IMG/VR virus record: IMGVR_UViG_3300028797_000120 | Coordinates: 1-64,000 of that record | Origin: an uncultured virus (IMG/VR IMGVR_UViG_3300028797_000120) | Lineage: Duplodnaviria > Heunggongvirae > Uroviricota > Caudoviricetes | Direction: 5' to 3' (one strand) | Length of the DNA stretch: 64,000 nucleotides | Part shown: positions 2,960 through 29,735 of the stretch, piece after piece | Layout of the letters: the number at the start of each line of letters is the position of its first letter | How positions within the stretch are numbered: the first letter of the stretch is position 1 | The notes under the pieces: model-generated | Told to the model about the DNA's origin: nothing | The model's input: the letters and a program-made list of their open reading frames with translations, nothing else | Database searches by the model: none | Translations under genes and position numbers: made by a program

Positions 2960-2972
2960 ATTATACCAACAA
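2960..2972 (-). promoter_or_regulatory. Extended -10 promoter element TTGTTGGTATAAT
   Basis: Intergenic, 24 nt upstream of ATG 2936; same GGTATAAT core recurs at 12312, 28062 and 43026. Confidence 0.65.
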
Positions 2973-3006
2973 ATGCCCGAAACATCTTTTGCTGAGGGCC
3001 AGCGGC

Positions 3007-3968: not shown

Positions 3969-3980
3969 GAATGTCCCCCA

Positions 3981-4020
3981 CAGAAGAGAGGCGGGACCGG
4001 AAACTAATCCGGCCCCGCCT
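3981..4020 (-). terminator. Hairpin (probable intrinsic terminator) after the major capsid gene
   Basis: AGGCGGGGCCGGA-TTAGTT-TCCGGTCCCGCCT 13-bp stem (one G.U) followed by a weak pyrimidine tract CTCTTCTG. Confidence 0.6.
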
Positions 4021-4075
4021 GGCCGTTAAGACCGTTGGACGGCTTGCTGGCTATGTCTCGATTCGCTCCATACGG

Positions 4076-5095: not shown

Positions 5096-5110
5096 CTGTC
5101 TCTCCTTTCC

Positions 5111-5650: not shown

Positions 5651-5709
5651 GTTTTTTGCCTTTCCTTTGGTTTTGGCTTGTTGGTTGTGAACCGGCTGGC
5701 CCACATGGG

Positions 5710-6147: not shown

Positions 6148-6163
6148 CGGAGAACACCTCCCG

Positions 6164-7669: not shown

Positions 7670-7795
7670 TTTTACTCCTTTAGTTTGTCTTGTTCCGTCT
7701 TTCCTGCCTGCGCCGTCGGTCGCCGGCTAGTACGCGGAGTACTTCCCAAGCAACTTGGCTGACACAGTAAATCATACATAATCCTCTGTGGCGTG

Positions 7796-9271: not shown

Positions 9272-9311
9272 GAATCACCCCTCTTTGAATAAACAAACTA
9301 CTCCAGAAGAT

Positions 9312-10382: not shown

Positions 10383-10801
10383 ATCTCAACAACCTCTTCC
10401 GTCGGGATCTGCGCCGTGAAGCTGGCGCGGAGATCATCAACGGCGCCCTCGATCCGTCCAATGACGATCTCCTTCCACTCGTTCCCGACGGCCCTCGCCT
10501 CTCCTACGGAAGAGTAGTCCCTAGAGTCGAAGCTACGCATGTACGGGAAGCCATGCAGGACCCTGACATACTCGTCGCCGAAAGTGACCGTCTTCTCCGG
10601 ATCCACGGAGGCCGACCTTGCCGACGCGCCCTGTGACTTAATCGTGGTGTCCGAGTACGTGTAGGTGACGTCTCCACCGACGTTGATCTCCGGCTCGCCG
10701 TACTGGACCATCAGCTCAAGGTCTCTCTCGCTCCAGTCCTCTGTGTTGATCAGAACCCTGAAGACCGAATCGTCCATTGAAAGAAAAACGCGAATCTTCA
10801 C
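10379..10801 (-). CDS. Hypothetical protein
   Basis: 140-aa ORF, GGAGG RBS, GTG start, tightly packed between neighbours. Confidence 0.65.
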   Translation of the reverse strand: MKIRVFLSMDDSVFRVLINTEDWSERDLELMVQYGEPEINVGGDVTYTYSDTTIKSQGASARSASVDPEKTVTFGDEYVRVLHGFPYMRSFDSRDYSSVGEARAVGNEWKEIVIGRIEGAVDDLRASFTAQIPTEEVVEI

Positions 10802-10809
10802 GGAACCTC

Positions 10810-12282
10810 CTAGAGATAGTTGGAATCCTTGATCGAGCTGTCCAGCCTCGTAAGGTCCTCGACGTTCGACATCCTTATCCCCTTGTCCACGTCAGTCATG
10901 ACCTTCATGTCCGCAGGAGACACGGCGACCGAGTTCACCGCGGACCTGAGGACGGACCTCACCATGGCCTTGTCAAGGGATATGCGGGGGGACGACATGA
11001 CGATCGACTTGTACACCTCCGCTACGACGTTCGGATCGGCGTCACGGATGATGGGGTCGTTTGCCATCAGGTCGTCAAGCAGCATCGACCTCCTGACGTT
11101 GAGAAGCATCTCGTCCTCACCCGACAGCTTGCCGTTGTCCGAAAGCGCCTTAAGCGCCGGGCTGAAGCTCACGGTCGGCAATATGTTCGCTATCGGGGCG
11201 GCGTCCTTCTCGATTTCCGTACCGGTCCCGTCTGAGGTGAGGGAACCATCCGCCATCTCACTGATGACAGACGCCAGTTTATCGCTCAGACGGCTGTCCG
11301 CGATGGTGTCCCATCCCGTACCGTTTGACGATCCTGAAACGTCTCCTTCAGGCTTGCCGTCAGGGGCATCCATGCCAGACGCTACCGGTTCGGCAGGGTC
11401 GAAAAAATCCGAAAGCGAAGACCCTCCTGCGTTATCATCCGGAAGTCCTGTGACGGAGGACTCAGCCTCCTCCGCTTTCTTGATGTAGAACGCCTCCTTG
11501 CCCCTGAACTCGGATGCCATGCCGAGAATGGTGTCGACCTCCTCGGCCATCTTGAGCAGGTCTTCCACGGGGGACGCGTCAAACACGGCGGACGACGCGA
11601 ACGCACCTCCGTCGGACGACGCGACGGACCCGCATACAGAGGAAACGAGTGAAAGGGCTTTGCCCGCCGTACAGGCCGATTTGAACATGGCGGCCGTTGT
11701 TTCCGGATCTTTGGACATCTCGATCGCCTCGGCGATCTTAACGGCCCGTTCGCGCGCGGCGATGTCCATCTCCCTGGAGAGACTTCCCGCCATCTCGCCG
11801 GCGGACTTCAGGAGATCGATGTCCCCGAAAATCATCTTCAGCACGCTCGCGCTCGACATTCCGGACGTTCCGTCATCATCCTCCCTTGACGAGGCCTCCT
11901 TCACGGCGGAACTGAATCCGGCATCCATGGCCTCCATCGTGGCGTTCGTTTTCGAAGGCGGATTCGCGTAGAAAGAGTAATCGCATACGTTTCCGGTTTC
12001 TGACGAAGCGGCCTTTTTGAGCCCGCCGTCCGACGCGCCGTCAAGGAGGATCTTGGCTACAGCCTCCTTGCTCGCCAGCTCGCAGGCCCCTGTCGGGTCG
12101 TTCTTGTCGCGCTCCTTGCTGATCGCGGCGAGCGTGTTGAACATCTCGACCAGACGGTCGGTCTGGTTACCGTTGAAATCGGCAGCCGACGCGGCCTTGG
12201 CAACCGCGTCGTTCGCGCCCATCCCGCCGTTGTAGTCCGCGGCAGCGGATTTCACGGCCTCCATCAGCTTTTCTTTAATCAT
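10810..12282 (-). CDS. Putative internal head/core protein
   Basis: 490 aa, AAGGAG RBS, GGTATAAT upstream, helical, very dense K-x-A motifs. Confidence 0.7.
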   Translation of the reverse strand: MIKEKLMEAVKSAAADYNGGMGANDAVAKAASAADFNGNQTDRLVEMFNTLAAISKERDKNDPTGACELASKEAVAKILLDGASDGGLKKAASSETGNVCDYSFYANPPSKTNATMEAMDAGFSSAVKEASSREDDDGTSGMSSASVLKMIFGDIDLLKSAGEMAGSLSREMDIAARERAVKIAEAIEMSKDPETTAAMFKSACTAGKALSLVSSVCGSVASSDGGAFASSAVFDASPVEDLLKMAEEVDTILGMASEFRGKEAFYIKKAEEAESSVTGLPDDNAGGSSLSDFFDPAEPVASGMDAPDGKPEGDVSGSSNGTGWDTIADSRLSDKLASVISEMADGSLTSDGTGTEIEKDAAPIANILPTVSFSPALKALSDNGKLSGEDEMLLNVRRSMLLDDLMANDPIIRDADPNVVAEVYKSIVMSSPRISLDKAMVRSVLRSAVNSVAVSPADMKVMTDVDKGIRMSNVEDLTRLDSSIKDSNYL

Positions 12283-12311
12283 GGGACAAAAGTCTCCTTA
12301 GTCATGTCATG

Positions 12312-12322
12312 ATTATACCGAA
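12312..12322 (-). promoter_or_regulatory. -10 element TTCGGTATAAT
   Basis: Intergenic, upstream of the RBS and ATG at 12282. Confidence 0.6.
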
Positions 12323-12337
12323 TAAAACGTGTAGAGT

Positions 12338-13579
12338 CTAACCGCCAATCTCGAGCCGGGACAGGTAATCGTCCAGCGCTTTCATTTTCTCTTTTCTTAT
12401 GCCATCTGCCTTCGGAAAATCCTTGTGGATTGACTTAACCATCTCAGACGCCATTTCGCGGCTCCACGGCTTTCCAAGGATCTCGTCGTACATCCTGTTC
12501 TTCGCATACGTGTCCCATATCACCTTGTCTTCATCGTTAAGCACGCCTTTCATTCTCTTGAGTAACTCCATACCCTCGTATTCCTTGGGCCTGATTTCCT
12601 CGCCTTCCATTATTTTCCCAAGAACCCTGTCTATCTTGTACCTTAACTCTGCCCTTTTTCTGTCGACCCTGTTTCCCTGAGCCCCGATTTCCGCGGCTGC
12701 GGTCTGGAGAGGGGCAACCATATACAACGGGAACTTAGCCGCTTCGGTCACAGCGGACCGGACACCTTTCCTTATACCATTCTCCAAGCCTTCGGATCTC
12801 GCCGACTTCCCTCCTTCTGACAGTCCAATTCCGGCAACGAAAGCTGGCAACGCGTACTTCCCTCCGAGGAAGAAGCTCGGGAACGCGTATCCGTTAAGAG
12901 CGGATCCCGCTATCTCTCCCGAGTTTCCTCCCTTGAGGTACGTTCCTATACCCTCCTTCGCGCCCATGGAAACGCCTATAGGTGTCTTGAGCTTACTGAG
13001 GGCGCCGAACGCCTTACCAAATCCTGACGCCACAGCGCTGCCTCCGGGAATCTTTGATGCGACACTTCTCATGGCGCCAGACACACCCCTCGCCATGGGA
13101 ACAATGCCGAGCCTTTTGAGGAGGACGGCCGCTGAGTTTGCCCCGACCATACCTGCTGTCGCCTCAGGGAGATAGGATCCGGCCGCCATTACCTTCTCAA
13201 GCGGGGTCCCCTTCTCGAATGCGTATTCCCTTCCAGCATCCAAGGCCGACTGAAGGCTAGGGTTTCCGAGCGCCCCGTACCATCCCCTGTATGCCATGTC
13301 AGGGTTTGCGCCGTTGACAGACCCGGAACCTCCGTTCCATTTGCCCTTTCCGGATGTCATGACGGACTTCTGTTCTCCGCCAGGAGCGACATTTTTCCAC
13401 GCCCTTATCTGCGGTACCGGTCTTCCTGAACTATCAAGCATGTGTCCGGAAGGCGATCTCGCGTCCCTGTTGTAGCCATGGTATCCCTCAAGCCACTCCG
13501 CCGGCCTCATCTGCGCTGTCTTCAACATGTCTACCCACGACGTCTTTCCTTCCATCGCCATACTGAACCCTCCTGACAT
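12338..13579 (-). CDS. Hypothetical virion protein with Gly-rich hydrophobic core
   Basis: 413-aa ORF; N-terminal WVDMLKTAQ leader. Confidence 0.65.
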   Translation of the reverse strand: MSGGFSMAMEGKTSWVDMLKTAQMRPAEWLEGYHGYNRDARSPSGHMLDSSGRPVPQIRAWKNVAPGGEQKSVMTSGKGKWNGGSGSVNGANPDMAYRGWYGALGNPSLQSALDAGREYAFEKGTPLEKVMAAGSYLPEATAGMVGANSAAVLLKRLGIVPMARGVSGAMRSVASKIPGGSAVASGFGKAFGALSKLKTPIGVSMGAKEGIGTYLKGGNSGEIAGSALNGYAFPSFFLGGKYALPAFVAGIGLSEGGKSARSEGLENGIRKGVRSAVTEAAKFPLYMVAPLQTAAAEIGAQGNRVDRKRAELRYKIDRVLGKIMEGEEIRPKEYEGMELLKRMKGVLNDEDKVIWDTYAKNRMYDEILGKPWSREMASEMVKSIHKDFPKADGIRKEKMKALDDYLSRLEIGG

Positions 13580-13596
13580 TTATGTTCATCAATGAA

Positions 13597-15243
13597 TCAG
13601 TTCTTTCTCCTTGCCCTGTCAGCCTGTCCTCCTGCGTCTTTTGCAGCTTGGCTAATCATCCCGCCGGAAAGATCATCAAGCCGAGACACAATGTCTGGAT
13701 GTTTCTCAATAAACGGGACGAAGTCTCTCCACCCCTTTTCAATCGACGGGAAAAGTCCGATTGTCTTACTGTTGAACCCTATGTCCCCAAGAGCTGTTTT
13801 AGGCATAAAAACGTATGGCCCGACGTTGTCAAAAAACCTTAGAAGCTCGTCGTAATGTCTCTTCATGGACTCTTCTGTATGGTATGCGCCGGTTCTCCTT
13901 ATGTCTGCGACAACCTTCTTGAGAGCATTAGACCCCTCCAGAGTGGGCGCTGACGCCGAGTAGTCCCAGAAAGGCCTCTTGATCCCGTACCCTTTCATGT
14001 CTGACACGTCTCCGAAACCACCGTTTATGTACGCCGACAGGACATTCCTTGAGGCAGGATACCTTGCGGATGTCCACTTTATCGCATCCATGACAGCGCG
14101 GTCGAGACCGTTTGTCTCTACAGCATCTTTCTGTTCGGCAGACCATCCTTTTCGTTTCGCGTACAAACCCATGACTCCCGGCATGGCGTATGCGAGATTT
14201 CCAATGTAAGCCGATTCTCCTTCCGGCCGCCGATATCCGCTGTCTGGCAACATCCCGGCGGCAAGATATGTCAGTGGGGCAACCCTTACGTCCTCCTTAA
14301 TGCCGTAGACCCCGGGGTTTTCCCCATTAGACGGAACGACTTGAGGCTCTATGGCCGAGACTGCACGCTCGATTGGTCCGACCCTAGGCTTATAAATAAA
14401 AAGCTCCTCGTCATCAGGGTCCGCGAACGCATTCTCCCAAAGGTACACGTTTTTTGGCCTAGGGATATAACCTGTTCCTACTCCTTTTTCCTGGTTCTTC
14501 CGTACGAGCTCCCTAAATGATTCATTGAACGCACGATAATCATTTTTCGTTTTAGCCGTTGCTGCCCTATCGAACAGCGCGACCTCGGGGATTGCGGCCC
14601 TTGCGAGACGAGGATGAAGCGCATCAGGAGTTAAGGTTTCCGCAATCCACTTTCCGAAATCAGCTTTTTTGAGCATCCTCCTTTTCTTCTTCTTCTCCCT
14701 GAGAGCCCTTACCTTTTCCGCTATAACAAACGAGAGCGCTATGGCGCCAGCGACAGATCCTGCTATCTGCGCACCATTACGGACAAGATCCATCCATCGC
14801 GGAACCTGATTTTCTCCTGGAACTTTTGATAATGTCCTATTCCTCCGTCTCCTTCCTCTTCGACTTTTAGATGATCTGGATTTTTCACGTAAAGATTTTT
14901 CGATTTCCGATCCAGAACCGGGAGAAGGGTCAGAAGTGGGAGAAGGGTCAGAACTGGATGATGTCCCAGAAGGGGCTAGAGTGGCAGAAGAGTCTTCTGT
15001 CCCTACGTAAGTGGCCCACCTACCCATTTCTTTAATATCCTTATCCGAGTATACGTCCTGTTTTCGCGAATTGAACGATCTTTCAGCAAAAGATCTCACT
15101 ATTGGAGCGCCCCATTCGTCCCAATCATTTATCCTTTTTCTATCATAAGGCGTACTTCCTGCTATTAACACTTTTAGAGGATCGGGAAGTCGGCTGAAAT
15201 CGATTCGTCCTTCTCTCAATGCATTTTCAAGCGTTTTATCCAT
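13597..15243 (-). CDS. Hypothetical modular virion protein (Ser/Pro linker, basic patch, TM segment, KKA, C-terminal domain)
   Basis: 548-aa ORF, lower GC than flanks, SDPSP repeats, IAGSVAGAIALSFVIA hydrophobic helix. Confidence 0.65.
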   Translation of the reverse strand: MDKTLENALREGRIDFSRLPDPLKVLIAGSTPYDRKRINDWDEWGAPIVRSFAERSFNSRKQDVYSDKDIKEMGRWATYVGTEDSSATLAPSGTSSSSDPSPTSDPSPGSGSEIEKSLREKSRSSKSRRGRRRRNRTLSKVPGENQVPRWMDLVRNGAQIAGSVAGAIALSFVIAEKVRALREKKKKRRMLKKADFGKWIAETLTPDALHPRLARAAIPEVALFDRAATAKTKNDYRAFNESFRELVRKNQEKGVGTGYIPRPKNVYLWENAFADPDDEELFIYKPRVGPIERAVSAIEPQVVPSNGENPGVYGIKEDVRVAPLTYLAAGMLPDSGYRRPEGESAYIGNLAYAMPGVMGLYAKRKGWSAEQKDAVETNGLDRAVMDAIKWTSARYPASRNVLSAYINGGFGDVSDMKGYGIKRPFWDYSASAPTLEGSNALKKVVADIRRTGAYHTEESMKRHYDELLRFFDNVGPYVFMPKTALGDIGFNSKTIGLFPSIEKGWRDFVPFIEKHPDIVSRLDDLSGGMISQAAKDAGGQADRARRKN

Positions 15244-15260
15244 ACAAACCCACCTTCACT

Positions 15261-15590
15261 TCATTTTCGATCTATCGGGTATAGAACCGTGTCGGCAACC
15301 GCCTCCAGGCACGTGTCCGCAGCCGGTATAACGGAGACAGGCACCGACAATACATTATACCATGAAAACCTGAATACGCCGTCCGTCGCCATCATCTGCG
15401 GGAACGCCGTAACGGCCGTCCACGACGCCATCTCCCTCGTGGACTGGTAGGGCCTCTCTATCCTCGCGTCCGTCCACGGGCATCGGTTGTAGACGTTCAT
15501 GCAGCCGGACGATATCGCAAGGACGGCCGCCAAAAGCGCCGGTATTACGATGCGGGCAGGGATAAGAACACATTTTGTCGCATAGTCCAT
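15261..15590 (-). CDS. YceK/YidQ (DUF1375)-like lipoprotein
   Basis: Likely start MDYATK at 15590; hydrophobic signal ending ISSG-C; PYQST and DTCLEAVADTVLYPID resemble the YceK/YidQ pattern. Confidence 0.55.
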   Translation of the reverse strand: MDYATKCVLIPARIVIPALLAAVLAISSGCMNVYNRCPWTDARIERPYQSTREMASWTAVTAFPQMMATDGVFRFSWYNVLSVPVSVIPAADTCLEAVADTVLYPIDRK

Positions 15591-15604
15591 CAAGCTCGCC
15601 ACAA

Positions 15605-17707
15605 CTACACCCCCTTTATCTCGACAGGGTCGTTCGGGCCGATCTCGCCGCCCCTGTACGCCCTGATCGCGTCCGCCTTCGTCTCGAACACCCTGACCGG
15701 ACGCTTCGTCCTGCCCCTCGTAAGCGCCCACAGCCCGGATATCTGCTCCTTCTCGGGCTTGTACCTGACGGACTTCATGTCCGTAAGGCTGATGAGGTTC
15801 TCGGACGGGAGCATCTTCTCAAGGGACTGCTTTGCGGCCTTGTCGCTCGCCGGCACGTGGATGTTCACCGTGTTGCTGAGAACGACGCCGTCGTCTGAAA
15901 TGAACGTGTCGGGGCCTGGCACAGTAAGATCATACCCGATTTCCTCCTTGCCCGTCTTCTCGACGGACTTGATCTTGAGCCACGAAACCTTATATGACGC
16001 CGTCTCCGAAAGGGCCTTCATCTCGGCGCAATCCCTGAGTTCGGTGTCCGGGCTTCCGTACAGGGAAAACAGAGCCTTTATGTCCCCCAATTGTGACCAT
16101 GTAAGGAATCCCTTCTTCCTCGCGATGTATATGTCGTTAACCGATTTCCTCACATCGGAGGACCATGTCGGAGCGATCCTTGGCTTCGAGGCGTTCCACC
16201 CGTCCGAGAGGGCTTTCAGCTCGTCGCCGCTCACGCTGACCTTCCACGACCTCCTGCTTCCGCCCGCGTCCTTCTCGAGCATCCCGGAGAACCTCGACTC
16301 GATATCAGCAAGCACGGACAATCCATTATCCCTTGCGATTGTGTTCTTTTCGGCCATCTCGTTCCCAATGGCCTCGATATCGCGGACGGTATTCCTGGTT
16401 ATCGTTCCGATACACGCGCGATTCCTCACGTTCATGGCGACACTATTCACTTTTCTTCTCATCGCCATCTCGTCTTCTCCTGCGGATCCCTCGTCAGAAC
16501 CCGAAACCTCGAAAGTCGGTATCAGACGCGATATCTTTTCCGCTATTCCGCGAGGGAACGGGATCACATCGTTCCTGACGTAGGTTGAGCGCGTGTCAAC
16601 ATGGGAAGAGACGAAAATGTCCCTCTTTCTCGAATGGCAGCACATCGAGAGGAGATCCACGCGCTTCGCGTCAACTGTGCTTACTGAGCATATCCAAGAG
16701 TCGTTCCCTCCGGACGTGCGCTTGCTGTAGGAAATAGAAGACCCGACCCCGAGGAGCTGGCAGCACCTCCTGAACTCCCTGACGAGACGGATGGATGTGC
16801 TTGAGAACGATATCAGGAGCTGGGGCTTCTCTTTGCTGTGGCTCAGGCATACCGTCCCGTCCGTAGCGATAAGCCCGTTAACGAGACCAAGGATAAACTC
16901 CCTTCCAGCGAACTGGAACCAGACCGGAAGCCTCTTATTGGCTGACCCGGACGTTTTCTCGTCCCCATGCCCGTCGATGAGCTCCTTGATCCGTCCTCCG
17001 AGAATACTTCGTCTACCGGAGTTCAGCCTGTAAGCGGTCGTGTCCCCGTACCTACCGGACTCATCGCAGAACCTGTGCTCGATCTTCGATATCGTGAAGT
17101 CCGGGAAAACGGTCTTCAGGAAGTCTGATACGAAGGCGATGTTATATCCATCGTTGTCCGAGAGATATGGGTTTAGGCACCTGTCCGCCCATCCGTCTCC
17201 AGCCATGATTCCGACGAACTGTCCGAAACCGAACCCGATTTCAGTACACAGCCCTGACTTTTCCAGCTTGATCATCCCATCCTGAAAATCAAACGACAGG
17301 CCATCAACAGAGGAGGCTAGAGGACAGTCCGATACGGGGACGAGAACATTCTTGTCCATCGCATCGGACGGCGTGAACCTCCCCGGAGTCATTGAGTCTC
17401 CGTTGGCCGCGATGCCGTAGACTGCCCTCGGGTCGTTGTCCGTGATGATCTGCCTTCCGTCCTCAAGGTTTACGATCTCAACCTTCTTCCCCCGATGCAC
17501 GGACCAGAATTTGACATCCCTGAACTCGGGGAGACCGGTCTTCTCGTTGTATGAGGAAACCCTCACGCCTTCCGGGACATCGTAGAACTCAATGTCGTAT
17601 CCGGAATCCTTCCTCACTGACGAGAGCCCGCCATGGGGGAAGTCCTCGAGATCAACGACAACCGGGACACCTTCCATCTCAGCCACCACGCTCTTTTTGA
17701 TCTGCAT
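15605..17707 (-). CDS. C-terminal split-intein half with LAGLIDADG homing endonuclease, fused to an 88-aa RNA polymerase beta' C-extein
   Basis: FVGIMAGDGW and LVNGLIATDGTV endonuclease motifs; ends GYDLTVPGPDTFISDDGVVLSN|TVNIHVPAS..MLPSENL, where TVNIHVP aligns with the QMAVHVP that follows NADFDGD in RpoC; own AAGGAG RBS. Confidence 0.85.
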   Translation of the reverse strand: MQIKKSVVAEMEGVPVVVDLEDFPHGGLSSVRKDSGYDIEFYDVPEGVRVSSYNEKTGLPEFRDVKFWSVHRGKKVEIVNLEDGRQIITDNDPRAVYGIAANGDSMTPGRFTPSDAMDKNVLVPVSDCPLASSVDGLSFDFQDGMIKLEKSGLCTEIGFGFGQFVGIMAGDGWADRCLNPYLSDNDGYNIAFVSDFLKTVFPDFTISKIEHRFCDESGRYGDTTAYRLNSGRRSILGGRIKELIDGHGDEKTSGSANKRLPVWFQFAGREFILGLVNGLIATDGTVCLSHSKEKPQLLISFSSTSIRLVREFRRCCQLLGVGSSISYSKRTSGGNDSWICSVSTVDAKRVDLLSMCCHSRKRDIFVSSHVDTRSTYVRNDVIPFPRGIAEKISRLIPTFEVSGSDEGSAGEDEMAMRRKVNSVAMNVRNRACIGTITRNTVRDIEAIGNEMAEKNTIARDNGLSVLADIESRFSGMLEKDAGGSRRSWKVSVSGDELKALSDGWNASKPRIAPTWSSDVRKSVNDIYIARKKGFLTWSQLGDIKALFSLYGSPDTELRDCAEMKALSETASYKVSWLKIKSVEKTGKEEIGYDLTVPGPDTFISDDGVVLSNTVNIHVPASDKAAKQSLEKMLPSENLISLTDMKSVRYKPEKEQISGLWALTRGRTKRPVRVFETKADAIRAYRGGEIGPNDPVEIKGV

Positions 17708-17843
17708 CTCCTAAACTCCTTTTCTGATTGGATGCGTGATAATTTATCAAAAACTTAAGATTGATGCAACCAATATCTTTGCTACTCAAAAAGTCGTCAA
17801 GAGCCTTGCCAGTAAGGCTGACGCGAACGCTTCCAATCTGCTG
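15872..17843 (-). mobile_element. Intein 2 (apparently split: IntN 17682-17843, IntC 15872-17707) inserted directly after the catalytic NADFDGD
   Basis: Extein continuity NADFDGD|TVNIHVP; IntN begins QQIGSVRV; IntC ends SN before Thr+1. Confidence 0.85.
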
Positions 17844-20800
17844 GTCGCCGTCGAAGTCGGCGTTGAACGCGCCACAGACTAGAGGGCAGACGTTGATTGA
17901 GCGCCCTTTCACGATGTGAGGCTTGAAGGCCATGATGTTGAACTTGTGCCACGTCGGGGCCCTGTCCATGAGAACGGGCCGCTCCTCCATGACGTCGTCC
18001 AGTATGTGCCTCGCAGTGGCGTTTCTCTCGTCGATCATCTCCTTTGAGGCGACCGGGGAATAGCCGCGCTGGACGAGCTTGCGCTCTACGAAGGGTCTGA
18101 ATATTGTCCAGGCCATGTCCTCAGGGATCCCGATCTGGTCCATGCTGAGGTTGCCGTTCGGGGTGATGACGGAGCGTCCGACGAGGTCCTGGGTCTTCGA
18201 GACGGTCTTTGCCTGGAACATCCCCATCTTCGGGACTGTCCCTATCACCTGCCTGACGGCGCCCTTGAGGTTCTTCGCGCGGCCCTCCTGCGTTACGGGG
18301 TCACCGAGCCCGTAGGCGGCCTTCACGGCCCCGTAGACGGCAAGGCGCTCGTCCGCGAGGGCGGAGGCGGGGAGCTCCCTGGAGAGGTCCTCGTAGTTGC
18401 GCTTCATCTCGATGAGCTCCTTGTAGAGCTCGTTCATGTCGGGCACGAGGGCTACGTCGCCCATCTTGGAGACCGGGCGGAACATGGGCGGGAGAACGGG
18501 AACCCGCGAGATCATCCAGTCTGACGGAGAGATGCCCATCTTATTGGCGGACTTCAGGTATCCGAGGACCTTAACGGCGTTGTCCCGCTGCGCCCCGCGC
18601 CTGGTTAGAACCTCCGAGCGGGCCTTCTCGATGGCGCCGTCCACGTCGACCTTCGACAGGGCTTCCCTGAGGGCTTCCCCGCCCGTCTTGCCGTTCAGCT
18701 CCTCGCGTCCGGAGAGGACGGCCTCCATTTTCTTCGCCGTCAGTCCGAGGACGCGGCGTACGGGCTCCTCCATCATCGGGTTTGGGACGGGATCCGGGAG
18801 CGTGATCATGCTCCAGCGGTTTCCGCCCATCCCGCCCGTCTTTCCGAGGTCGAAGAGTCCTCCCCTTACGGGGTTCATGTCGGGGTCGACCATCTGCGAG
18901 GAGTCGATCACTCGGCCCTGGGCGAGCTCGTCGATGTCCTTGTCGGTCTGCGGCATGATGGATGTGACGTCTCCCTTCTCCACGACGTTCACGCCGCCGG
19001 CGCGGAGTGTGTTCAGGAACTTCTGGTAGATGAACGGCACTCCGGGCTCCTCGACGGGGAGCCCGAGGCGGTAGCGGCGCCAGTACTCGTCGTTGCGCGA
19101 GCCGCGCAGGGTTATGGAGTCCTTCAGGACGTCGGTCGCGCCGTGAGAGAGCAGGGCCGTCGCGTCAAAACCAGAATTTGAAACCAGGCAGTCAGAAGCA
19201 CAGTATTTGTGCGATTTCGCAACTGTAATGTCATACAGGCATATTTCGTCGTCTGGACCATGCTTGCCATCGCTGTACGGCCTCACAGATGTGACAAGCG
19301 CCGGGACGCTTCCAAGTGCGTAAGCAGTGTCTACACCTACGTACGTTTCATACAGCCTTGAAACTTCATTTATCAGCCACTTCTTAGAGGCTGGTATGTC
19401 TTCAGGCCTGATGTATTTGGCTACAATACGAGCCATACTGCGGCAGGCATCAGCAGACAACCCCAAGTAATAATACTCTTTTTTTACACCTTTGTAGGTT
19501 TTATGCGTCGTCCTGACAGTCACGCCAGCGCCAAGCCTCCCGCAAAGCCATTCGGCAAGCCTACAGTTCTCTTCATACGTAAAGTTCAATGTTGATATTG
19601 CCCCAAATGGGCTACCGGTCGGCACTCCATTCTTCGTGTGCTCAGATGCGCAGCCATCGTCAAGGAACCATGCGGCTATGCCGACATCATTTATGTTAGA
19701 CAGGTCGACGTTGACAAGGCTCTTACGACCGAGAGACCCGTCTGGCTGTCTATAGAACATGTTCTTGAGCCGTTCTGCTATGTCATGGCGGTGAATCTGA
19801 AAATACACAATATGCGAGTCGTCTCCATCAGCACGCCTAAATCCAGTCTTGCTCTTCCTCTGGGTGTTCTTTCTGCTTGACACCAGCGCTCCTAGGCAGT
19901 GTATCTTCCAGTTGACGTAGGCGTACTGATGGTGGCTGTGCTGCTCTTGGTAGAACGGTATACATCCGACGTCTAAGCTATTCGTCCTGTCAGACTTGCA
20001 TAGATTGTCGTTTATATTGCATATGCATCCATCGCCAAGCATAGAACCCATTAGAATGGACATCTGGTCCTCTGTAGGCACATACCCGTATGTCGTCAGC
20101 CAGTCACCAGGCCTTAAATCACCAGCAAGAACTTCACCTTTGTTGAAGGAGTACATGTGATGCTGACGTGTGACATGCATCGTCTTGCCTGTGTATACTA
20201 CTCGCTTACGGCTACAATTATCTGACCCTGGCAGATAGTTAATTGATATGGACAGAACCTCTGACATCTTCCCCTTGCGGCAGAACCAGTTCGTTATGAG
20301 AGAATAACCCCATGACCCGTTGTCGAAGCGGGTCCACACGTATTCGGGAATTTTCTTGTCTACGATATGACCTATGGATTCCTCTCCATGCAATACCCTG
20401 ATCGGCTGATCTGCGGTGAAACACATACGCTTAGCACCGTCATCGCCCCCCTTGGCCGGCTGCTCGTCCATCGTGTAGGCGCTGTCCACGCCGCGTGCCG
20501 AGAACTTCTTTTCGGCCAGGTGGTGGAACGCCTTGACGTACGCGTACCCGTCTCCGACGTTCTTGATGATCCTTCCCGTCTGCGGGTCGAACACGTCTGA
20601 CGACTCCTTGACGCCGTTCTCGTCCATCTGCCGTTTGACCCATGCGGTCCACCCCTCTTGCGGCGGCAGCTGAGGGATGCGGATCTGCTTCCCTGTCTTC
20701 TTGGCCACCTTGGCGAGGTTCATCAGGGCTATCTGGCCCGGGGCGACGCGGGAGAGGAAACCCATGGGGTTCATCAGCATGTCGTACGGCTCGTTCGTGG

Positions 20801-23800
20801 CCGCGTCGCGCGGCATCTTATCGTCCGGGATGACGTCCGAGACGACCCCCTTTAGAGAGAAATCGGGGCACAGCTTGTCGCCGGGCTTCACAGGAGGGTC
20901 GCTGTTGACGATCACCTTCGCGCCGTGCGGTCCCGACACGATGTCCGTGACGACTCCAGGCCAGTCGTGCTCCCACTTCTGTGATCTGTCCGTGATGGCG
21001 TTCCTCAGGACGCCGGAGAGCTTTCCGAGCTGTGCGTTCTCCGGTGACAGCATCTTGGGCCCGATGGCGAGGATCATGGGGTCGTCCCTGTGGAGCACGG
21101 TACCGACCTTTACGACGCCGTCGTCCCCGATCGTGTCGGCCTGCGCCTTCGTGTAGGCCGACGGGAACGCCGCGAGGAACTTCGACCTGGCGATCTGCAC
21201 GCCGTTCTTAGTGTCCTGCTCGAAGTTGTACGTGCGCGACGTGGCGAGCTTCTTCGCCGCGGATTCCGAGATCACGATGGCGTCCTCGAACGACGACGTG
21301 CCCTGCGGGGCGGGAAGCACGGCGACCTTCAGGTTCCGTCCCATGGTGACCGTTCCGGTCTTCGGGTCGGTGAAGTTGGAGTTGGCGAGGATTCCGCCCT
21401 CCTCCACCTCGTCTCCCTTTTTCACCTGGGCGGTGAACGAGAGGGAGGACAGGCGGTTGAACGGGAGGCCCTTGACGAGCGACGCGGTGTGCTCGCGGCC
21501 GTCCTTCCCGCGGAGGACGATCTCATTGTCGCTCACCTTCACTACGGTACCGGCGAACGGGGCCGTCAGGCATCCGACCCTCCGCCCGTAGTACTCGCCG
21601 TACGTCGTTTTCCCGTCGTCGGTCAGGCTCTCGACAAGAGGAACCTCTCCCTCTTTCTGGGGGAGGAACTGCTCCCAGAACTTCGACATGTAGAACTGGC
21701 GGGCGCCCATGACGGCCGTTGGCATCGGGTTCATGTTGATGCCGGCAGACACGGTGTTGCCGAACCCAGGCACCATGAAGTCCACCTCGTCCCTGGGGAC
21801 CATCGTAGGCACGCCCTTGCGCATGACGTAGAGGTTGGGTGACTTCGGGTCCTGGCCCGGGAAGGCCACGGTGTGGGACGACGCGTCGTTCAGGGAGACG
21901 TAGCGGGTTTTACCGGTCCGCATGTCGATCATCTTGTTGTAGATCCGGTTGTCGCTCCCCTTCATCGTCCCGAGCGCCGCCCTGACGTCGATCCCGATGC
22001 CGAACGACTCAGGACCGCTGATGAAGTCCACGTAGCCCAGGTAGTCACCCTGGACGTTGCGGGCCTCGTTGGTCACGAGGTCGGGCGAGGAGATGCCGCC
22101 CTCCCCAAGGCGGGTGATGCGGGACTGCTGGGTGAGGAGCGACATCGGGTTCGCCTCCTCTCCTGGCATCGCGAGTCCGGACCCCGAGAGAAAGGTGTCG
22201 AGATAGGGCCCGAGCGCGTTCCTGGCTATGCGGGCCAGCGAGCGGTCCCGCTTCGCCCTGAACAGGAGGGACTTCGTGAGGCGTCCAGAGTCGCGGTCGA
22301 TGCGCTCGCGCATCATGTCCTCCACCCCGTAGAACCGGCTGAAGCGGGGGTTGTCGCGCTCGTCCGGCTCCTCAGCGCCCCTGTTGATGTTCAGGAGCTT
22401 CTGCGCGGCCCTGAGCATGACCTTCCCGGTCACTCCAGAGGCGTTCTCAAGCCCGAGCGTCCGGACGACGACGTCTGGGTCGAGCCCGCTGGAGGCAAGC
22501 GACTCGGAGATGAACGAGGCCTTCTCGGACGGGGTCAGGCTCATGTCGGCCCGGCGGCCGGCGTAGCGCGCGTAGACCTTGTCGACGGCCCTAGGGTCGA
22601 ACTTGGCGATGTTCACGTTCGCAACGGCGTCTCCCCAGGACTTCCGCATGTCGTCATCCGACACGCCGAGGGCGCTCAAAATGGGGTAAAGGGGGACATG
22701 GCCCTGTCCGACGCTCATGTTCAGTGCGCCGGTCGACCTGTCCAGTCCGATCCGGAAGCCGAGCCCGTTCGCCACGTTGAACTGGGACTCGAGCTCGCCG
22801 TTCTGCTTGCGGCGCACGTAGACCCCGGGGGACAGGCGGGCCTGAGAGATGACGGTGTACTCGCTCCCGTTATTGATGATCGTTCCCCTGTCGGTGTAGT
22901 AAGGTACCCTGATGACGCCGTCCCTTCGCTCGTCCAGGACTTTCCCGGTGCGCTTGTCCGTCAGGCGCCACGTCCCGGCGACAGAGCATCCGAGGCGCCT
23001 GTTGTTCAGGATGGCCCTCTTCTGCTGCTCAAGCGTGTAGGAGGTAGGACCCTCGTATTTAACGTCCAGAAGCTCGAGGCGCACGTCGTCGTTCTCGATC
23101 GGGAAGCGGTTCTTGACGGCTTCAAGGACGTTGTCCATGATGGCCTGCCGAGTGGCCGGCGCGTCCGTGAACCCGCGTAGCCTCACGCCCGGAGGCACGC
23201 CCTCCATGGGATCGTCGGCGTCGTCCGCCTGGGAAGTCTTGACTATGCTCTTCTCTTTCTTATATCCGGAAGCAGTCTCCTCGTCGTCAAGATTCTTCTG
23301 AGCCTCTTCCCGAGTGTTGAACACCTTCCCGGGATGGTCTCCGAACCCGCCGTACATGGCGAGTCCGGTGGTCTTAAACCTTCCCCCTTCTTCGATGTCT
23401 GGGGAATCTAGCCAGCAGCAGTAGTAATCCTTTCCGTTGGACCGCTTCCCGCCGTAATAGTATCCTACGATCTTACGTACCTTTCCACTCATCCTCGCGT
23501 GAGGGAAGGTTACCCATTTCCCGATAGGAAATTTTTCCTTCATTTCCGCGGGGATATCATCCTCCTCATGACGATCTTGCGATGTCTTGACGATGCTCTT
23601 TTTTTCGGCTGGATCTGATTTGGCGGCAGGGGCCTTGTCCGCGGGAGCCTGTTTTTCGGTCTTGGCTGGATTCGAGGCCTCCTGGTTCAGGACCCAGACG
23701 TCACCGTTCCTCCTGAGCCTCTTCATGAAGTCGCTGTGGAGCTTCGCCGACTTCGCGACGGCCGCCTCGCTGTAGCTCCTGTTCCCGGGTATCGTGTGGG

Positions 23801-24950
23801 CAGGAGTAAACACCTTTCTCAGAAGCCAGTCGGCGTACTTGTCAGCGGTGAACTCCGCCCCGGCGGCCATGTGGGCCTTGTAACCGGACCTGGACGGCAT
23901 GTAGACCTTCGTGAAATAGTCGATCTGGCTGTCGGACGAGTCTTGAAGCCCGTTCTTCGCGAGCCACGCCTTATAAGCATCAAGAGAGGGGCCCGTGTAC
24001 TGGAAGAGCCCGCGTCCACCTCCCCCTCCCATCTGCTTAGTGGCGTAGTCGAATCTACCTCCTGTCTCCCTGTCTATGTTCGCCAGCACAGCGGCCTCTA
24101 GAATCGGGTTGTTCAGATTCTCGTGGAGCCTCTTTGCAACGTTATTGAACCTTTCGTAGACATCCACCGGACCGGCGGCTTGCTTTGGCGGGGGGATAAC
24201 AATTTTCTGCCCGATAGAGAGAACGTTCGGGTTCTTGAGGCTGTTCGCGGCGATCAGCTCTTTCAAAGGAACCTTTAGCTTTTGGGCGATACCGTAAAGC
24301 GAGTCGCCCTTCTGGACGACGTATTCGGACGGGCGATTGACAGGATTGACCTGGGCCGCCTTCTCGTTGACCTTTATCGGATCGACGATCGGAGCGACGG
24401 ACCTGTACTCGTGGAACGGCTTGGTCTTGCGGTCAGACGAGTCGATCCACTTCCTGAACTCGGCCTTGGAGACAGGCGTGATCCATCCTAGGCCATTCCA
24501 CCCCTTCTGGTAGCAGGCTAGGTAGGTCTTCTTGGCGTCCTCGACGCTGTCGAAACCGTACATGACCTTGTGCTCGTCGAACTTTCCGGTCTTGGGGTCC
24601 ACCTGGTCGATGACGAAGACGCACCCCTTCTCCGGATGGTCGGACAGGTAGATGTCCACCGGGTCGCCGTCCGTGTCTGTCGTGCCCCTGATGTCTCCGT
24701 AGTCGCATGCGAGAGCATTGCTCCACCTCGTCCCGTCCGGAGAGACCCCGGATCGGATTGACCCCTTCGGGTTCTCTATGGACACGCGGAACCCGTCGAT
24801 GGACAGGTGGACCTTTCTGTAGTTCCCCGCCCTTCTCTGCCCTTCTGTGGGGTTCTCGGCTGCGTCAGGGGCTCCTGCGTTCACGGCGCGCTGCGCCGGC
24901 GAGGAGGCCTTTTTCGAGAAGATCGAGTCGATGGTTTCAAGTAGCGTCAT
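17679..24950 (-). CDS. Polyprotein: inorganic pyrophosphatase-like domain + LysM + phage tail-lysozyme-like domain + fused RNA polymerase beta/beta'(N-half), with inteins
   Basis: PPase DYGDIRGTTDTDGDPVD/FDEHKVM; LysM YVVQKGDSLYGIA..NPNVLSIGQKIVIP; lysozyme LANIDRETGG..GRGLFQYTG; beta motifs GTIINNGSEYTVISQ, FEDAIVISE, GDKL..KGVV, NPMGFLSR; beta' motifs GGLFD, PVLPPMFRP, GRSVITP, RAPTWHK, NADFDGD. Confidence 0.92.
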   Translation of the reverse strand: MTLLETIDSIFSKKASSPAQRAVNAGAPDAAENPTEGQRRAGNYRKVHLSIDGFRVSIENPKGSIRSGVSPDGTRWSNALACDYGDIRGTTDTDGDPVDIYLSDHPEKGCVFVIDQVDPKTGKFDEHKVMYGFDSVEDAKKTYLACYQKGWNGLGWITPVSKAEFRKWIDSSDRKTKPFHEYRSVAPIVDPIKVNEKAAQVNPVNRPSEYVVQKGDSLYGIAQKLKVPLKELIAANSLKNPNVLSIGQKIVIPPPKQAAGPVDVYERFNNVAKRLHENLNNPILEAAVLANIDRETGGRFDYATKQMGGGGGRGLFQYTGPSLDAYKAWLAKNGLQDSSDSQIDYFTKVYMPSRSGYKAHMAAGAEFTADKYADWLLRKVFTPAHTIPGNRSYSEAAVAKSAKLHSDFMKRLRRNGDVWVLNQEASNPAKTEKQAPADKAPAAKSDPAEKKSIVKTSQDRHEEDDIPAEMKEKFPIGKWVTFPHARMSGKVRKIVGYYYGGKRSNGKDYYCCWLDSPDIEEGGRFKTTGLAMYGGFGDHPGKVFNTREEAQKNLDDEETASGYKKEKSIVKTSQADDADDPMEGVPPGVRLRGFTDAPATRQAIMDNVLEAVKNRFPIENDDVRLELLDVKYEGPTSYTLEQQKRAILNNRRLGCSVAGTWRLTDKRTGKVLDERRDGVIRVPYYTDRGTIINNGSEYTVISQARLSPGVYVRRKQNGELESQFNVANGLGFRIGLDRSTGALNMSVGQGHVPLYPILSALGVSDDDMRKSWGDAVANVNIAKFDPRAVDKVYARYAGRRADMSLTPSEKASFISESLASSGLDPDVVVRTLGLENASGVTGKVMLRAAQKLLNINRGAEEPDERDNPRFSRFYGVEDMMRERIDRDSGRLTKSLLFRAKRDRSLARIARNALGPYLDTFLSGSGLAMPGEEANPMSLLTQQSRITRLGEGGISSPDLVTNEARNVQGDYLGYVDFISGPESFGIGIDVRAALGTMKGSDNRIYNKMIDMRTGKTRYVSLNDASSHTVAFPGQDPKSPNLYVMRKGVPTMVPRDEVDFMVPGFGNTVSAGINMNPMPTAVMGARQFYMSKFWEQFLPQKEGEVPLVESLTDDGKTTYGEYYGRRVGCLTAPFAGTVVKVSDNEIVLRGKDGREHTASLVKGLPFNRLSSLSFTAQVKKGDEVEEGGILANSNFTDPKTGTVTMGRNLKVAVLPAPQGTSSFEDAIVISESAAKKLATSRTYNFEQDTKNGVQIARSKFLAAFPSAYTKAQADTIGDDGVVKVGTVLHRDDPMILAIGPKMLSPENAQLGKLSGVLRNAITDRSQKWEHDWPGVVTDIVSGPHGAKVIVNSDPPVKPGDKLCPDFSLKGVVSDVIPDDKMPRDAATNEPYDMLMNPMGFLSRVAPGQIALMNLAKVAKKTGKQIRIPQLPPQEGWTAWVKRQMDENGVKESSDVFDPQTGRIIKNVGDGYAYVKAFHHLAEKKFSARGVDSAYTMDEQPAKGGDDGAKRMCFTADQPIRVLHGEESIGHIVDKKIPEYVWTRFDNGSWGYSLITNWFCRKGKMSEVLSISINYLPGSDNCSRKRVVYTGKTMHVTRQHHMYSFNKGEVLAGDLRPGDWLTTYGYVPTEDQMSILMGSMLGDGCICNINDNLCKSDRTNSLDVGCIPFYQEQHSHHQYAYVNWKIHCLGALVSSRKNTQRKSKTGFRRADGDDSHIVYFQIHRHDIAERLKNMFYRQPDGSLGRKSLVNVDLSNINDVGIAAWFLDDGCASEHTKNGVPTGSPFGAISTLNFTYEENCRLAEWLCGRLGAGVTVRTTHKTYKGVKKEYYYLGLSADACRSMARIVAKYIRPEDIPASKKWLINEVSRLYETYVGVDTAYALGSVPALVTSVRPYSDGKHGPDDEICLYDITVAKSHKYCASDCLVSNSGFDATALLSHGATDVLKDSITLRGSRNDEYWRRYRLGLPVEEPGVPFIYQKFLNTLRAGGVNVVEKGDVTSIMPQTDKDIDELAQGRVIDSSQMVDPDMNPVRGGLFDLGKTGGMGGNRWSMITLPDPVPNPMMEEPVRRVLGLTAKKMEAVLSGREELNGKTGGEALREALSKVDVDGAIEKARSEVLTRRGAQRDNAVKVLGYLKSANKMGISPSDWMISRVPVLPPMFRPVSKMGDVALVPDMNELYKELIEMKRNYEDLSRELPASALADERLAVYGAVKAAYGLGDPVTQEGRAKNLKGAVRQVIGTVPKMGMFQAKTVSKTQDLVGRSVITPNGNLSMDQIGIPEDMAWTIFRPFVERKLVQRGYSPVASKEMIDERNATARHILDDVMEERPVLMDRAPTWHKFNIMAFKPHIVKGRSINVCPLVCGAFNADFDGDQQIGSVRVSLTGKALDDFLSSKDIGCINLKFLINYHASNQKRSLGDADQKERGG
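17741..17769 (-). promoter_or_regulatory. Sigma70-like promoter embedded in the IntN coding sequence
   Basis: TTGCAT-17 nt-TAAATT with TG extension, in an AT-rich island ~34 nt upstream of the ATG at 17707. Confidence 0.55.
19176..20423 (-). mobile_element. Intein 1 (contiguous, 416 aa, LAGLIDADG endonuclease) in the RNAP beta C-terminal region
   Basis: GAKRM|CFTADQP...VTRQHHM...LMGSMLGDGC...AWFLDDGC...YDITVAKSHKY..LVSN|SGFDATALLSHGA; exteins align with RpoB GQRFGEMEVWALEAYGA; lower GC than flanks. Confidence 0.92.
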
Positions 24951-27707: not shown

Positions 27708-28052
27708 CTAGTATTTCCTGATGGCCGAGACGGCGCCTATGCCGGTCCCTAGCCCCTTGAGAAAGCCGTTGTTCGTGAATGCTCCCGTTATGACCCTTCC
27801 GAGGATGCCTCCTCCGATCATTCTGAGCGCGTTTTCCGCCGGCGACGTGCTCCTGAGTCCGGAGTCGATAATGCGTCCGAACGCGTCCCTGCGCTCCTCT
27901 GGAGTCCCGATTCCCCTCGCCTGGGCGACGCCTATTGCGTTGAGGACGTCTGCGACCGACGGCTCGGGGTTTTCCCGTCCTACGGTGGGGGACCAAGCCT
28001 GGCCGTAGAACGCCAGCTTCTGAAGGGTTGATGCGTGTCTGTCAGTGATCAT
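27708..28052 (-). CDS. Small Gly-rich hydrophobic virion protein, possibly on a near-leaderless transcript
   Basis: Start MITDRH at 28052, 9 nt downstream of TGTGGTATAAT, no SD; QKLA motif; glycine-zipper-like C-terminus. Confidence 0.6.
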   Translation of the reverse strand: MITDRHASTLQKLAFYGQAWSPTVGRENPEPSVADVLNAIGVAQARGIGTPEERRDAFGRIIDSGLRSTSPAENALRMIGGGILGRVITGAFTNNGFLKGLGTGIGAVSAIRKY

Positions 28053-28061
28053 AACTGACTG

Positions 28062-28073
28062 ATTATACCACAA
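28062..28073 (-). promoter_or_regulatory. Extended -10 promoter TTGTGGTATAAT
   Basis: Identical 12-mer at 43026-43037; heads the gene run that leads to the RNAP gene. Confidence 0.7.
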
Positions 28074-28085: not shown

Positions 28086-28204
28086 TGGCGGACGGGGCGG
28101 GGGTCGAACCCGCATGCCTGGATGTCGGATGGTCCTGCGCCGTTCCGCGGCGTGTCCGATTCCGGTCGAAAGGAACAAAGCCCGGCATCGGACGGCTCCC
28201 GTCC
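28086..28204 (-). ncRNA. 119-nt tRNA-like RNA with encoded CCA but non-canonical core
   Basis: Perfect 7-bp acceptor stem GGACGGG/CCCGTCC + GCCA end; perfect T arm GCGGG-TTCGACC-CCCGC; no canonical D or anticodon arm; fills an intergenic gap. Confidence 0.75.
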
Positions 28205-28215: not shown

Positions 28216-28962
28216 TTACCCAATCTGAACGGTCAGCGCATCCGGGGCCCACAGGCTCCTGTTCCTCTCGAGCCATGAGTCCGCCATATTTTTTTTCCTT
28301 CTGGAGAACGACGCGCTTCCCAGATGCTCGATATACGGGTCGAGCGACTTTATGCGATGGCCCTTTAGCCCGCGCTCCTCGCAGTCCCTGTAGAACCACG
28401 CCCCTGTGTCGTAGTGCTTGTTCGGGAGATTATTTGAAAGCATCTCCATGAACTCGCCGTTGTAGTACCTTACTCCGGAGTCCCGGACTAACGGAACGTT
28501 TATGAATGACAGGAACGGCAGAACCCTGTACGGGCAAAGTCCCATCTCATCGTTAAATGCGGAGAAGACCTGGCCCGACCATACGGCATCGTCAACGACA
28601 AAATCACGGATATCCCCCTTCATCAGCACATCGCTGTCAACCAGCATGAACGGCTCGTCGGTGTTGTCGATAAACCATTGGACAGACCTGCAATGCTTGG
28701 CCGACCCGTAGTTCGAGATGCGTGCATCCCTTGCGACCTTGTCCGGAAAACCCCGGAGCATCTCATCGAAGTCTATGACCTTACCGGACGTATTGTCGAC
28801 AACATCTATCCCGACACTTACGGTTTCCGGAGCTACGAAAGGGTCTCTGTCGCTGCTGTCGAATATGACGACACGGTCTATGCCCTTAGCGTTTTTATCG
28901 ATCGACCTTACGGCGGCCGATGTCACGTTGGGGGTATTATAGTGCGCGATGAAAGCTGTCAT
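28216..28962 (-). CDS. GT-A fold (GT2-like) glycosyltransferase
   Basis: FIAHYNTP, VVIFDSSD, MLVDSDV (DxD), DTG..., IEHLGSAS motifs; ATGA overlap with upstream paralogue. Confidence 0.75.
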   Translation of the reverse strand: MTAFIAHYNTPNVTSAAVRSIDKNAKGIDRVVIFDSSDRDPFVAPETVSVGIDVVDNTSGKVIDFDEMLRGFPDKVARDARISNYGSAKHCRSVQWFIDNTDEPFMLVDSDVLMKGDIRDFVVDDAVWSGQVFSAFNDEMGLCPYRVLPFLSFINVPLVRDSGVRYYNGEFMEMLSNNLPNKHYDTGAWFYRDCEERGLKGHRIKSLDPYIEHLGSASFSRRKKNMADSWLERNRSLWAPDALTVQIG

Positions 28963-29735
28963 TCCCACAGTCTCCTGTTCATCTCGATCCATGCGTGGAA
29001 ACTCATCCTCTTCCTATATGACGCGGATCCATAATGAACGATGTATTGGTCTAGAGACTCCAGCCTTTTGCCGTCCAGACCGCGCTCCTCGCAGTCCCTG
29101 TAGAACCACGCCCCAGTGTCGCAATTACTTCCATACTCATCTTCTGAGAATCTCCACATGAAATCCTCATTGAAATAACGCGCTCCCGCATTCTTTACCA
29201 TCGGAACGTTTATGTAACACGCGAACGGCAATATCCTTGTCGGCTTTAAACCATAATCCTCTGAGTATTCCGAAGAACATTCACCAACCCATGCGTGGGA
29301 TTCCGAAACCATTACGGACATGTCACTCTTGCAGAGAACATCGCTGTCAAGGAGTACAAACGGGTCGTCCGAGTTGTCTATGAGCCATTGAACTGACCTG
29401 CAGTGCCTGGCTGACCCGTAGTTAGCCGTCCCCCTCTCAGGGCGTTTCCCCTTTCTCTCGCTCACCATCCTGTCCAGATCAACAAGGTTTCCACCGGTGT
29501 TGTCCAAAACGCGGACGAGGTTTCCTAACCCTTCAGGTATGACGAATGGAAGATGGTCGCTGTTGTCGAAAACCGTTATCCTTGAGACGGAAGGCGTGCT
29601 TTTGACAACCGATTTTACGCAAGCGGACGTGAGGTCTGGGGTGTTGAAATGTACGATGCAGACGCCGATCATGCCATTTCCGTGATCGCAGGAGCCTCTC
29701 ATTCCCGTGTAGCGCAAATATCCTCCTGACATCAC
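28959..29735 (-). CDS. GT-A fold (GT2-like) glycosyltransferase, paralogue of 28216..28962
   Basis: CIVHFNTP, VFDNSD, LLDSDV, DTGAWF, IVHYGSAS; start may be at 29672. Confidence 0.75.
   Translation of the reverse strand: MMSGGYLRYTGMRGSCDHGNGMIGVCIVHFNTPDLTSACVKSVVKSTPSVSRITVFDNSDHLPFVIPEGLGNLVRVLDNTGGNLVDLDRMVSERKGKRPERGTANYGSARHCRSVQWLIDNSDDPFVLLDSDVLCKSDMSVMVSESHAWVGECSSEYSEDYGLKPTRILPFACYINVPMVKNAGARYFNEDFMWRFSEDEYGSNCDTGAWFYRDCEERGLDGKRLESLDQYIVHYGSASYRKRMSFHAWIEMNRRLWE

Follow-up and report, generated by a model that had tools for sequence, protein, structure and literature searches.

A tRNA-shaped gene in a large gut phage that is probably a tRNA mimic

Two phage small RNAs encoded beside tRNA genes, T4 RnaC and RnaD (species 1 and 2 RNA), are 139 and 119 nt long (PMC3014915, accessible part). 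Irregular tRNAs are also known from metagenomes; E-loop tRNA1 is of this kind, and according to the accessible parts of PMC5389517 and PMC7609411 E. coli GlyRS and ThrRS both failed to charge the one tested. The locus described here lies in a 64,000-nt stretch of viral DNA (the window, meaning the whole stretch analysed), which belongs to a 120-kb virus record. It carries a 119-nt element that recurs identically in a complete 181-kb record (G004). The carrier is a large gut phage, and the element probably imitates a tRNA without working as a serine tRNA. It resembles RnaC in having a T arm, and long hairpins where the D and anticodon arms would be. However, the fold of RnaD has no T arm, the acceptor of RnaC is imperfect, and D-like and anticodon-like arms are found only in the window element. 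In blastn of 50,697 phage records, no T4-like RnaC or RnaD was listed and nothing matched beyond T-arm pieces, so that sequence homology is not supported; the folds differ as well.

Top half and body of the element

The features of the locus are as follows, with element positions in brackets.

28086..28204, minus strand: tRNA-derived RNA gene, 119 nt (1-119), from sequence, fold and shuffles; single copy in the genome
28198..28204, minus strand: acceptor stem, 5' strand (G1 G2 A3), with 7/7 Watson-Crick pairs to 28090-28096
28154..28193, minus strand: putatively inserted hairpin (12-51), 7+4 bp, 16-nt pyrimidine-rich loop, pair probabilities 0.66-1.0
28139..28151, minus strand: hairpin resembling a D arm (54-66), with 4 bp and a GG in its short loop, predicted from the fold and assigned by analogy with a second element, L035
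28118..28137, minus strand: anticodon-like arm (68-87), 3 bp here and 4 bp in four other strains, 8-nt loop, A before UCC
28114..28117, minus strand: variable loop (88-91), 4 nt, class I type, from sequence
28097..28113, minus strand: T arm, 5 bp and 7-nt loop, from sequence
28086..28096, minus strand: acceptor 3' strand, discriminator G73 and encoded CCA, from sequence
28216..28992, minus strand: upstream gene, GT-A/GT2-like glycosyltransferase, with no Pfam match and Atlas structure rows to PF00535/PF13641 clusters (TM 0.69-0.72)
28062..28070, minus strand: promoter-like motif TGGTATAAT of the downstream gene, 15 nt past the CCA
27708..28049, minus strand: conserved 113-aa gene (synteny anchor), from conservation among relatives

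The acceptor (GGACGGG/CCCGTCC) consists of seven Watson-Crick pairs and is followed by G73 and CCA, and the 5-bp T stem (GCGGG/CCCGC) closes a TTCGACC loop, as in the top half of a canonical tRNA. Between these parts lies an 84-nt middle, which opens with A and not U at position 8. The element is a real tRNA-shaped gene with a top half beyond chance; the motif of T arm, acceptor and CCA, matched 7/7 by a partner upstream, is present once in the window but in 0/200 dinucleotide shuffles (both strands). The first-pass annotation had described a perfect acceptor and T arm, the CCA, a serine-like G73 end, an 84-nt middle and the absence of U8, and the sequence agrees with it throughout, with A read at position 8. 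It had also set the element apart from ordinary tRNAs and from tmRNA, and had expected Rfam to give no match or a partial one. This was borne out. ARAGORN found 0 tRNA genes in the window, Rfam gave 0 matches to the element at gathering score, and no tmRNA was returned by either at normal thresholds. The best of the weak Rfam matches, to tRNA-Sec, reaches 18.2 bits where the cut-off is 47, and covers the top half only.

In the minimum-energy fold (-53.4 kcal/mol), the middle forms both hairpins that had been proposed from the sequence, together with the GCC/GGC helix closing their junction (pair probabilities 0.66-1.0 for hairpin 12-51, 0.88-0.98 for 53-67 and 0.86 for GCC/GGC). The accompanying statement that clear D and canonical anticodon arms are absent was not confirmed as such. 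There is no canonical anticodon arm: in place of a 5-bp stem and a 7-nt loop with U33 are 3-4 bp and an 8-nt loop, in which UCC is present behind an A. Absence itself goes too far, however, as 54-66 and 68-87 form D-like and anticodon-like arms in a class I-type fold at -50.9 kcal/mol, and it is by this 2.5 kcal/mol that the minimum-energy fold favours GCC/GGC over the anticodon-like arm. The stability of the whole RNA is unremarkable (z -1.6), with 16/200 shuffles folding equally well. In place of the canonical 2-nt connector with U8, A8 is followed by about 45 nt before the D-like arm.

The architecture is likely to be that of a class I tRNA which has taken up a 40-nt hairpin between the acceptor and the D arm. 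A 4-nt direct repeat, GCCG (9-12 and 54-57), bounds the stretch 9-53, and because of this repeat the hairpin could alternatively be an insert in the D loop, with 9-12 pairing with 63-66. When the 5' hairpin was removed in silico, ARAGORN made calls in 12/45 tries, none of which reached the normal threshold or had a valid anticodon. A serine-like cloverleaf with an 8-nt CGA loop was ruled out on energy, and a hammerhead-like reading of the GTCC/GGAC stem was dropped by eye, the familiar core motifs being absent in the element. A CsrA sponge, in view of the six GGA counted in the element, and an anti-Shine-Dalgarno loop are further candidate readings.

A second element and strain variants

A search with the anchor gene returned 19 metagenome loci, the identical copy and 18 others. 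At one of these 18, a second tRNA-like element, of 121 nt, was found in a related phage (L035:334-454, plus strand), 590 nt upstream of its anchor gene, which has 78% identity over residues 1-83. Its acceptor is CACGGCG/CGCCGTG (C1-G72), with U73, CCA and a T arm, and a TATAAT box ends 7 nt before base 1. From the 5' side, U8 and G9 are followed by a linker and then by a 6-bp hairpin, whose pyrimidine-rich loop is 17 nt long. Next come a textbook D arm with AATGGTA as its loop, an anticodon arm that holds ATCC, a variable loop of the short kind and, last, the T arm. Neither ARAGORN nor Rfam made a call for the L035 element. It folds better than 196/200 shuffles (z -2.5), and with the 5' hairpin removed in silico it is called by ARAGORN in 28/88 tries (24 Gly-TCC and 4 Ile, 15 of the calls at normal threshold).

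In both elements the hairpin starts with GTCC and ends with GGAC, the loop contains GCT(A)TTGTTC, ATCC stands at positions 75-78, and the length is similar. Common descent is not established, since the matches of the middles (p 0.92) and of the loops (p 0.12) are not significant in alignment, and the score of L035 with model R2 (18.1 bits) is within the range of ordinary tRNAs (16-30). Judged by sequence, the two elements appear to have the same plan with little sequence in common; the alignment does not support homology, and convergence is possible. In the two elements, the loop of the hairpin could pair with the D loop over 7 and 8 bp (shuffle p 0.13-0.22 and 0.06, for a pairing chosen post hoc), and this pairing is a lead only. 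A more far-reaching and rather unlikely proposal is that the two represent an undescribed family of five-armed phage tRNA mimics acting as counter-defence decoys, in which the pyrimidine loop of a hairpin in the acceptor-D connector would pair with the D-loop GG and let the RNA alternate between a tRNA shape that forms the elbow and one that is locked. For SerRS, the hairpin of the window lineage may in addition take the place of the variable arm.

No third element was found in 22 family records with model R2, nor in 1.1 Mb of family DNA. IMG/VR pattern scans gave none beyond the identical copy, which accounts for 1/2, 1/13, 1/67, 0/66 and 1/37 loci, the others being ordinary tRNAs or chance. 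No such element was found in the DNA available for 17/18 of the other syntenic metagenome loci (many of which are short), models R1 and R2 found only ordinary tRNAs in relatives, and blastn of 50,697 phage and 72,556 plasmid records gave short pieces only. There is no second copy of the hairpin in the window genome. Divergent members could be missed by these searches, because the patterns were exact and each model was built from one sequence.

Strain variants were taken from contigs of four runs of four other studies, in pieces 3-7% different from the window; these strains share ancestry. None of 17 runs was listed as an RNA source of the element, which speaks neither for nor against expression. 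Among the 40 of 124 variant rows listed, the element is changed at positions 79, 82, 86, 91 and 103, that is at 0/62 paired versus 5/57 unpaired positions (Fisher p 0.023), hairpin 12-51 has no change, and 13/113 third codon positions differ in the adjoining gene (p 0.005 versus paired sites). In all four strains, the change at position 82 gives one more pair in the anticodon-like stem. Position 79 is also changed in all four; the base behind UCC is still a purine, but the serine-type fold loses one of its pairs. The paired sites are, provisionally, invariant among strains, and the element is probably maintained by selection. The listed changes spare the helices, although they spare the fold drawn in the first-pass annotation equally well. 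A coding role was rejected, as the frame running through the element takes 4/5 listed strain changes at codon position 2, versus 13/16 at position 3 in the true gene.

The same variants bear on whether the element is a decaying pseudo-tRNA, left over from a tRNA array and inactivated when a small palindrome was inserted. In a relative (terminase 69%), such an array lies downstream of the terminase; ARAGORN makes 25 calls there at the relaxed threshold (L003:12586-14734), and the array includes four tRNA-Ser of the normal long-arm type. The window phage has one ordinary tRNA-Arg. A leftover would also fit the 4-nt repeat flanking the insert, the short D loop, the 8-nt loop and the patchy occurrence. 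However, 12/12 top-half pairs and the CCA are intact, the strain changes avoid pairs (among the changes listed), the hairpin is single-copy in the genome, and the plan recurs in a second phage, where the arms are intact, so that decay is quite unlikely. On L003 of the relative, two further observations were made: three tRNA-Ser genes (CGA, GGA, TGA; 13015-13303, plus strand) have non-canonical 9-nt T loops and are called at the relaxed ARAGORN threshold only, and an odd tRNA-like gene behind tRNA-Met (3860-3944, plus strand) has a long D loop and an expanded anticodon arm, and is called as tRNA-Gly(GCC), likewise at the relaxed threshold only.

Genomic setting, amino-acid identity and function

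The phage carries its own RNA polymerase subunits, a gpA-type terminase (Pfam) and one ordinary tRNA, tRNA-Arg(CCT). GTDB genomes gave no match to the anchor gene, and the phage sigma factor gives no host pointer, with 33-46% matches in unrelated taxa among the matches listed. This sigma factor is a full-length RpoD-like protein of 601 aa (G004 L203:12378-14180), and TGGTATAAT motifs precede several genes across the phage family. Other observations concern a 2423-aa gene (window 17679-24950, minus strand) with InPase, LysM, lysozyme, RNA polymerase beta/beta-prime and LAGLIDADG (intein-like) domains; many structural-region proteins (window 196-17707, minus strand) with repeated K-x-A motifs (KEAQ, KTAQ), noted by eye and possibly protease cut sites; and a reverse transcriptase beside Mtd-domain genes (G004 L203:16609-19999 and L204:3-692), which looks like a diversity-generating retroelement.

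The genes upstream of the element are GT-A/GT2-like glycosyltransferases and a methyltransferase, and the stop codon of the nearest glycosyltransferase lies 11 nt upstream of the element. No sigma-70 promoter or terminator was called around the element, and no convincing promoter stands directly in front of it. Of the TGGTATAAT motif that lies on its other side, G000 has six copies on the coding strand and none on the other strand. In such a setting the element could be a mark for cutting, where RNase P cleavage at the tRNA-like 5' end creates the 3' end of the glycosyltransferase mRNA and splits off the next transcription unit, with the RNA as a by-product. The element fills the gap between the stop codon and the TGGTATAAT promoter 15 nt downstream, and its canonical part is the top half only, both of which suit this role, as does the lack of a called promoter or terminator nearby. 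L035, however, has its own TATAAT box directly in front, and an encoded CCA, a D-like arm and a constrained 40-nt hairpin would be unneeded. A mere cutting mark is thus rather improbable.

The end of the element resembles that of tRNA-Ser in G1-C72, G2-C71 and G73. Among 228 distinct fetched tRNAs, 7/9 with a GGA...TCC-G end are Ser (the others being one Asp and one Arg), and of the best phage blastn matches to the T arm and the 3' end, most (13/17 records) are to tRNA-Ser. The accessible part of PMC9976931 states that serine identity rests mainly on the long variable arm, and that SerRS disregards the anticodon and reads shape. In the window element, a serine-like fold (D 9-25, anticodon 29-46, long arm) reaches -41.2 versus -53.4 kcal/mol for the minimum, and the class I fold has a variable loop of 4 nt. 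Since no long variable arm is predicted in the best fold, serylation is doubtful, against the suggestion of the first-pass annotation; the same-plan L035 element has a non-serine end (C1-G72, U73).

Put in structural terms, that suggestion would have the inserted hairpin stand in for the long variable arm, making the RNA a permuted class II tRNA that is charged with serine and serves as decoy or donor. In the L-shaped tRNA, the variable loop and the 8/9 connector lie side by side. The end (G1-C72, G2-C71, A3-U70, G73), the prevalence of Ser among tRNAs with such an end and among the blastn records, and the indifference of SerRS to the anticodon would agree with this. Against it are the end of L035, the 12 kcal/mol by which the serine-like fold lies above the minimum, the pair of that fold broken at position 79 in four strains, and the lack of an acceptor enzyme among 143 phage proteins, which leave such a permuted tRNA unlikely. 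The proteins scanned with Pfam were 15 from the window and 128 of the 186 ORFs listed for G004, and most had no Pfam match at all, so that a domain may have escaped the scan. No aminoacyl-tRNA transferase (FemAB/MprF-type), synthetase, RNA ligase or splicing endonuclease domain was found among them. The suggestion that the element is an aminoacyl donor for the glycan cluster upstream is thereby left without a partner enzyme, because no aminoacyl-tRNA-dependent transferase domain was found and the neighbours are glycosyltransferases and a methyltransferase.

The body gives a weak hint in another direction, being Gly-UCC-like as far as its sequence indicates. Segment 68-108 has its best score against the tRNA-Gly(TCC) of a relative (44 versus 43 for the next, 228 distinct tRNAs), and for anticodon-variable-T segments this tRNA ranks 1 of 228 for the window element and 2 for L035. 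Glycine identity is given by G1-C72, C2-G71, C35, C36 and U73 (PMC9976931, accessible part). The window element has G73 and G2-C71 in place of U73 and C2-G71, and the serine and glycine identity sets both read as incomplete in both elements. The element might nevertheless work as an unusual decoder (Gly-UCC-like, reading four bases or shifting the frame by +1), or be a tRNA with an intron-like removable hairpin. The hairpin-less L035 does score as tRNA-Gly(TCC) with U73, and the varying loop base remains a purine in the position-37 register. However, A replaces U33 in both elements, the glycine set is complete in neither, the hairpin-less window element is called in 0/45 tries at the normal ARAGORN threshold, and no splicing endonuclease or RNA ligase domain is present in the 143 proteins scanned. 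A length of 40-45 nt is below self-splicing intron size. A decoding or spliced tRNA is very unlikely.

What the two elements have in common is the acceptor/T-arm/CCA surface; the amino-acid identity bases are not common to them, and neither has a normal anticodon loop. Both keep this surface and lose amino-acid identity and a normal anticodon loop, and therefore a non-decoding mimic acting through its end is favoured. The best explanation, offered tentatively, is that the window element is a phage gene for a processed, non-decoding tRNA look-alike, with a class I body and an inserted hairpin, which acts through its intact end. RNase P would free the RNA from the transcript of the glycosyltransferase operon by cutting at G1, and trimming of the 3' end would stop at the CCA, the acceptor/T-arm surface of the RNA being kept intact. 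It would read no codons, given its 8-nt loop, the lack of U33 in UCC register and the short D loop, and the extra hairpin would exclude it from the ribosome. With its intact end, the RNA may then serve as a decoy for host factors that bind the ends of tRNAs, or as a sink for them, such as CCA-tail nucleases of the Cas12a3 kind and other tRNA-end binders. Cas12a3 contacts the T arm, acceptor stem and CCA, with the other loops dispensable according to the accessible part of PMC12851939. A decoy or mimic role is a reasonable possibility, still short of probable. The decoy for anticodon nucleases put forward by the first-pass annotation fits poorly, because the anticodon loop is the degenerate part; a decoy for tRNA-end binders fits better. 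The element is also a candidate for counter-defence against nucleases that attack tRNA ends.

Comparison with described RNAs

The window element has in common with tmRNA a tRNA top half without a decoding anticodon. It differs from tmRNA in lacking G3-U70 and A73, in its length of 119 nt, and in having no tag reading frame and none of the pseudoknots. With bacterial class II tRNA-Ser and tRNA-Sec (RF00005, RF01852) it shares G1-C72, G2-C71, A3-U70, G73 and the T arm, but it is without the long variable arm, U8 and 7-nt anticodon loop of these tRNAs and is 7/5, not 8/5. The 13-bp branch, long D stem and variable arm, and UCA anticodon of tRNA-Sec are likewise lacking. The likeness to class I tRNA-Gly(UCC) lies in the 4-nt variable loop, a T stem identical to that of the relative's tRNA-Gly(TCC), and UCC followed by a purine; the differences are A33, the 8-nt loop, G73, G2-C71 and the inserted hairpin. 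As an RNA keeping the acceptor/T surface only, the element is a testable candidate for the role of phage tRNA-like RNAs such as T4 RnaC and RnaD. The tRNA finders miss the plan of the two elements, and phage tRNA inventories therefore undercount.

Searches of the literature showed no report of a phage tRNA that carries a hairpin in the connector, and the five-stem-junction allo-tRNAs of Mukai et al. (Supplementary Figure S5) may bear on novelty. The E-loop tRNA1 of Mukai et al. is similar in having extra sequence between the acceptor and the D stem (PMC5389517, PMC7609411, accessible parts), a likeness that is clear in L035 and would hold for the window element by analogy. In the 2/62 supplement rows of PMC5389517 on which the comparison is based, E-loop tRNAs are 8/4 and about 79 nt long, with a short unpaired loop, U73 and a normal anticodon arm, whereas the window element is 7/5 and 119 nt long, with a 40-nt hairpin, G73 and an 8-nt loop, and comes from a phage. 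A natural tRNA with a 40-nt hairpin at the 8/9 connector would show that the tRNA scaffold tolerates insertion at a site that is new in this respect.
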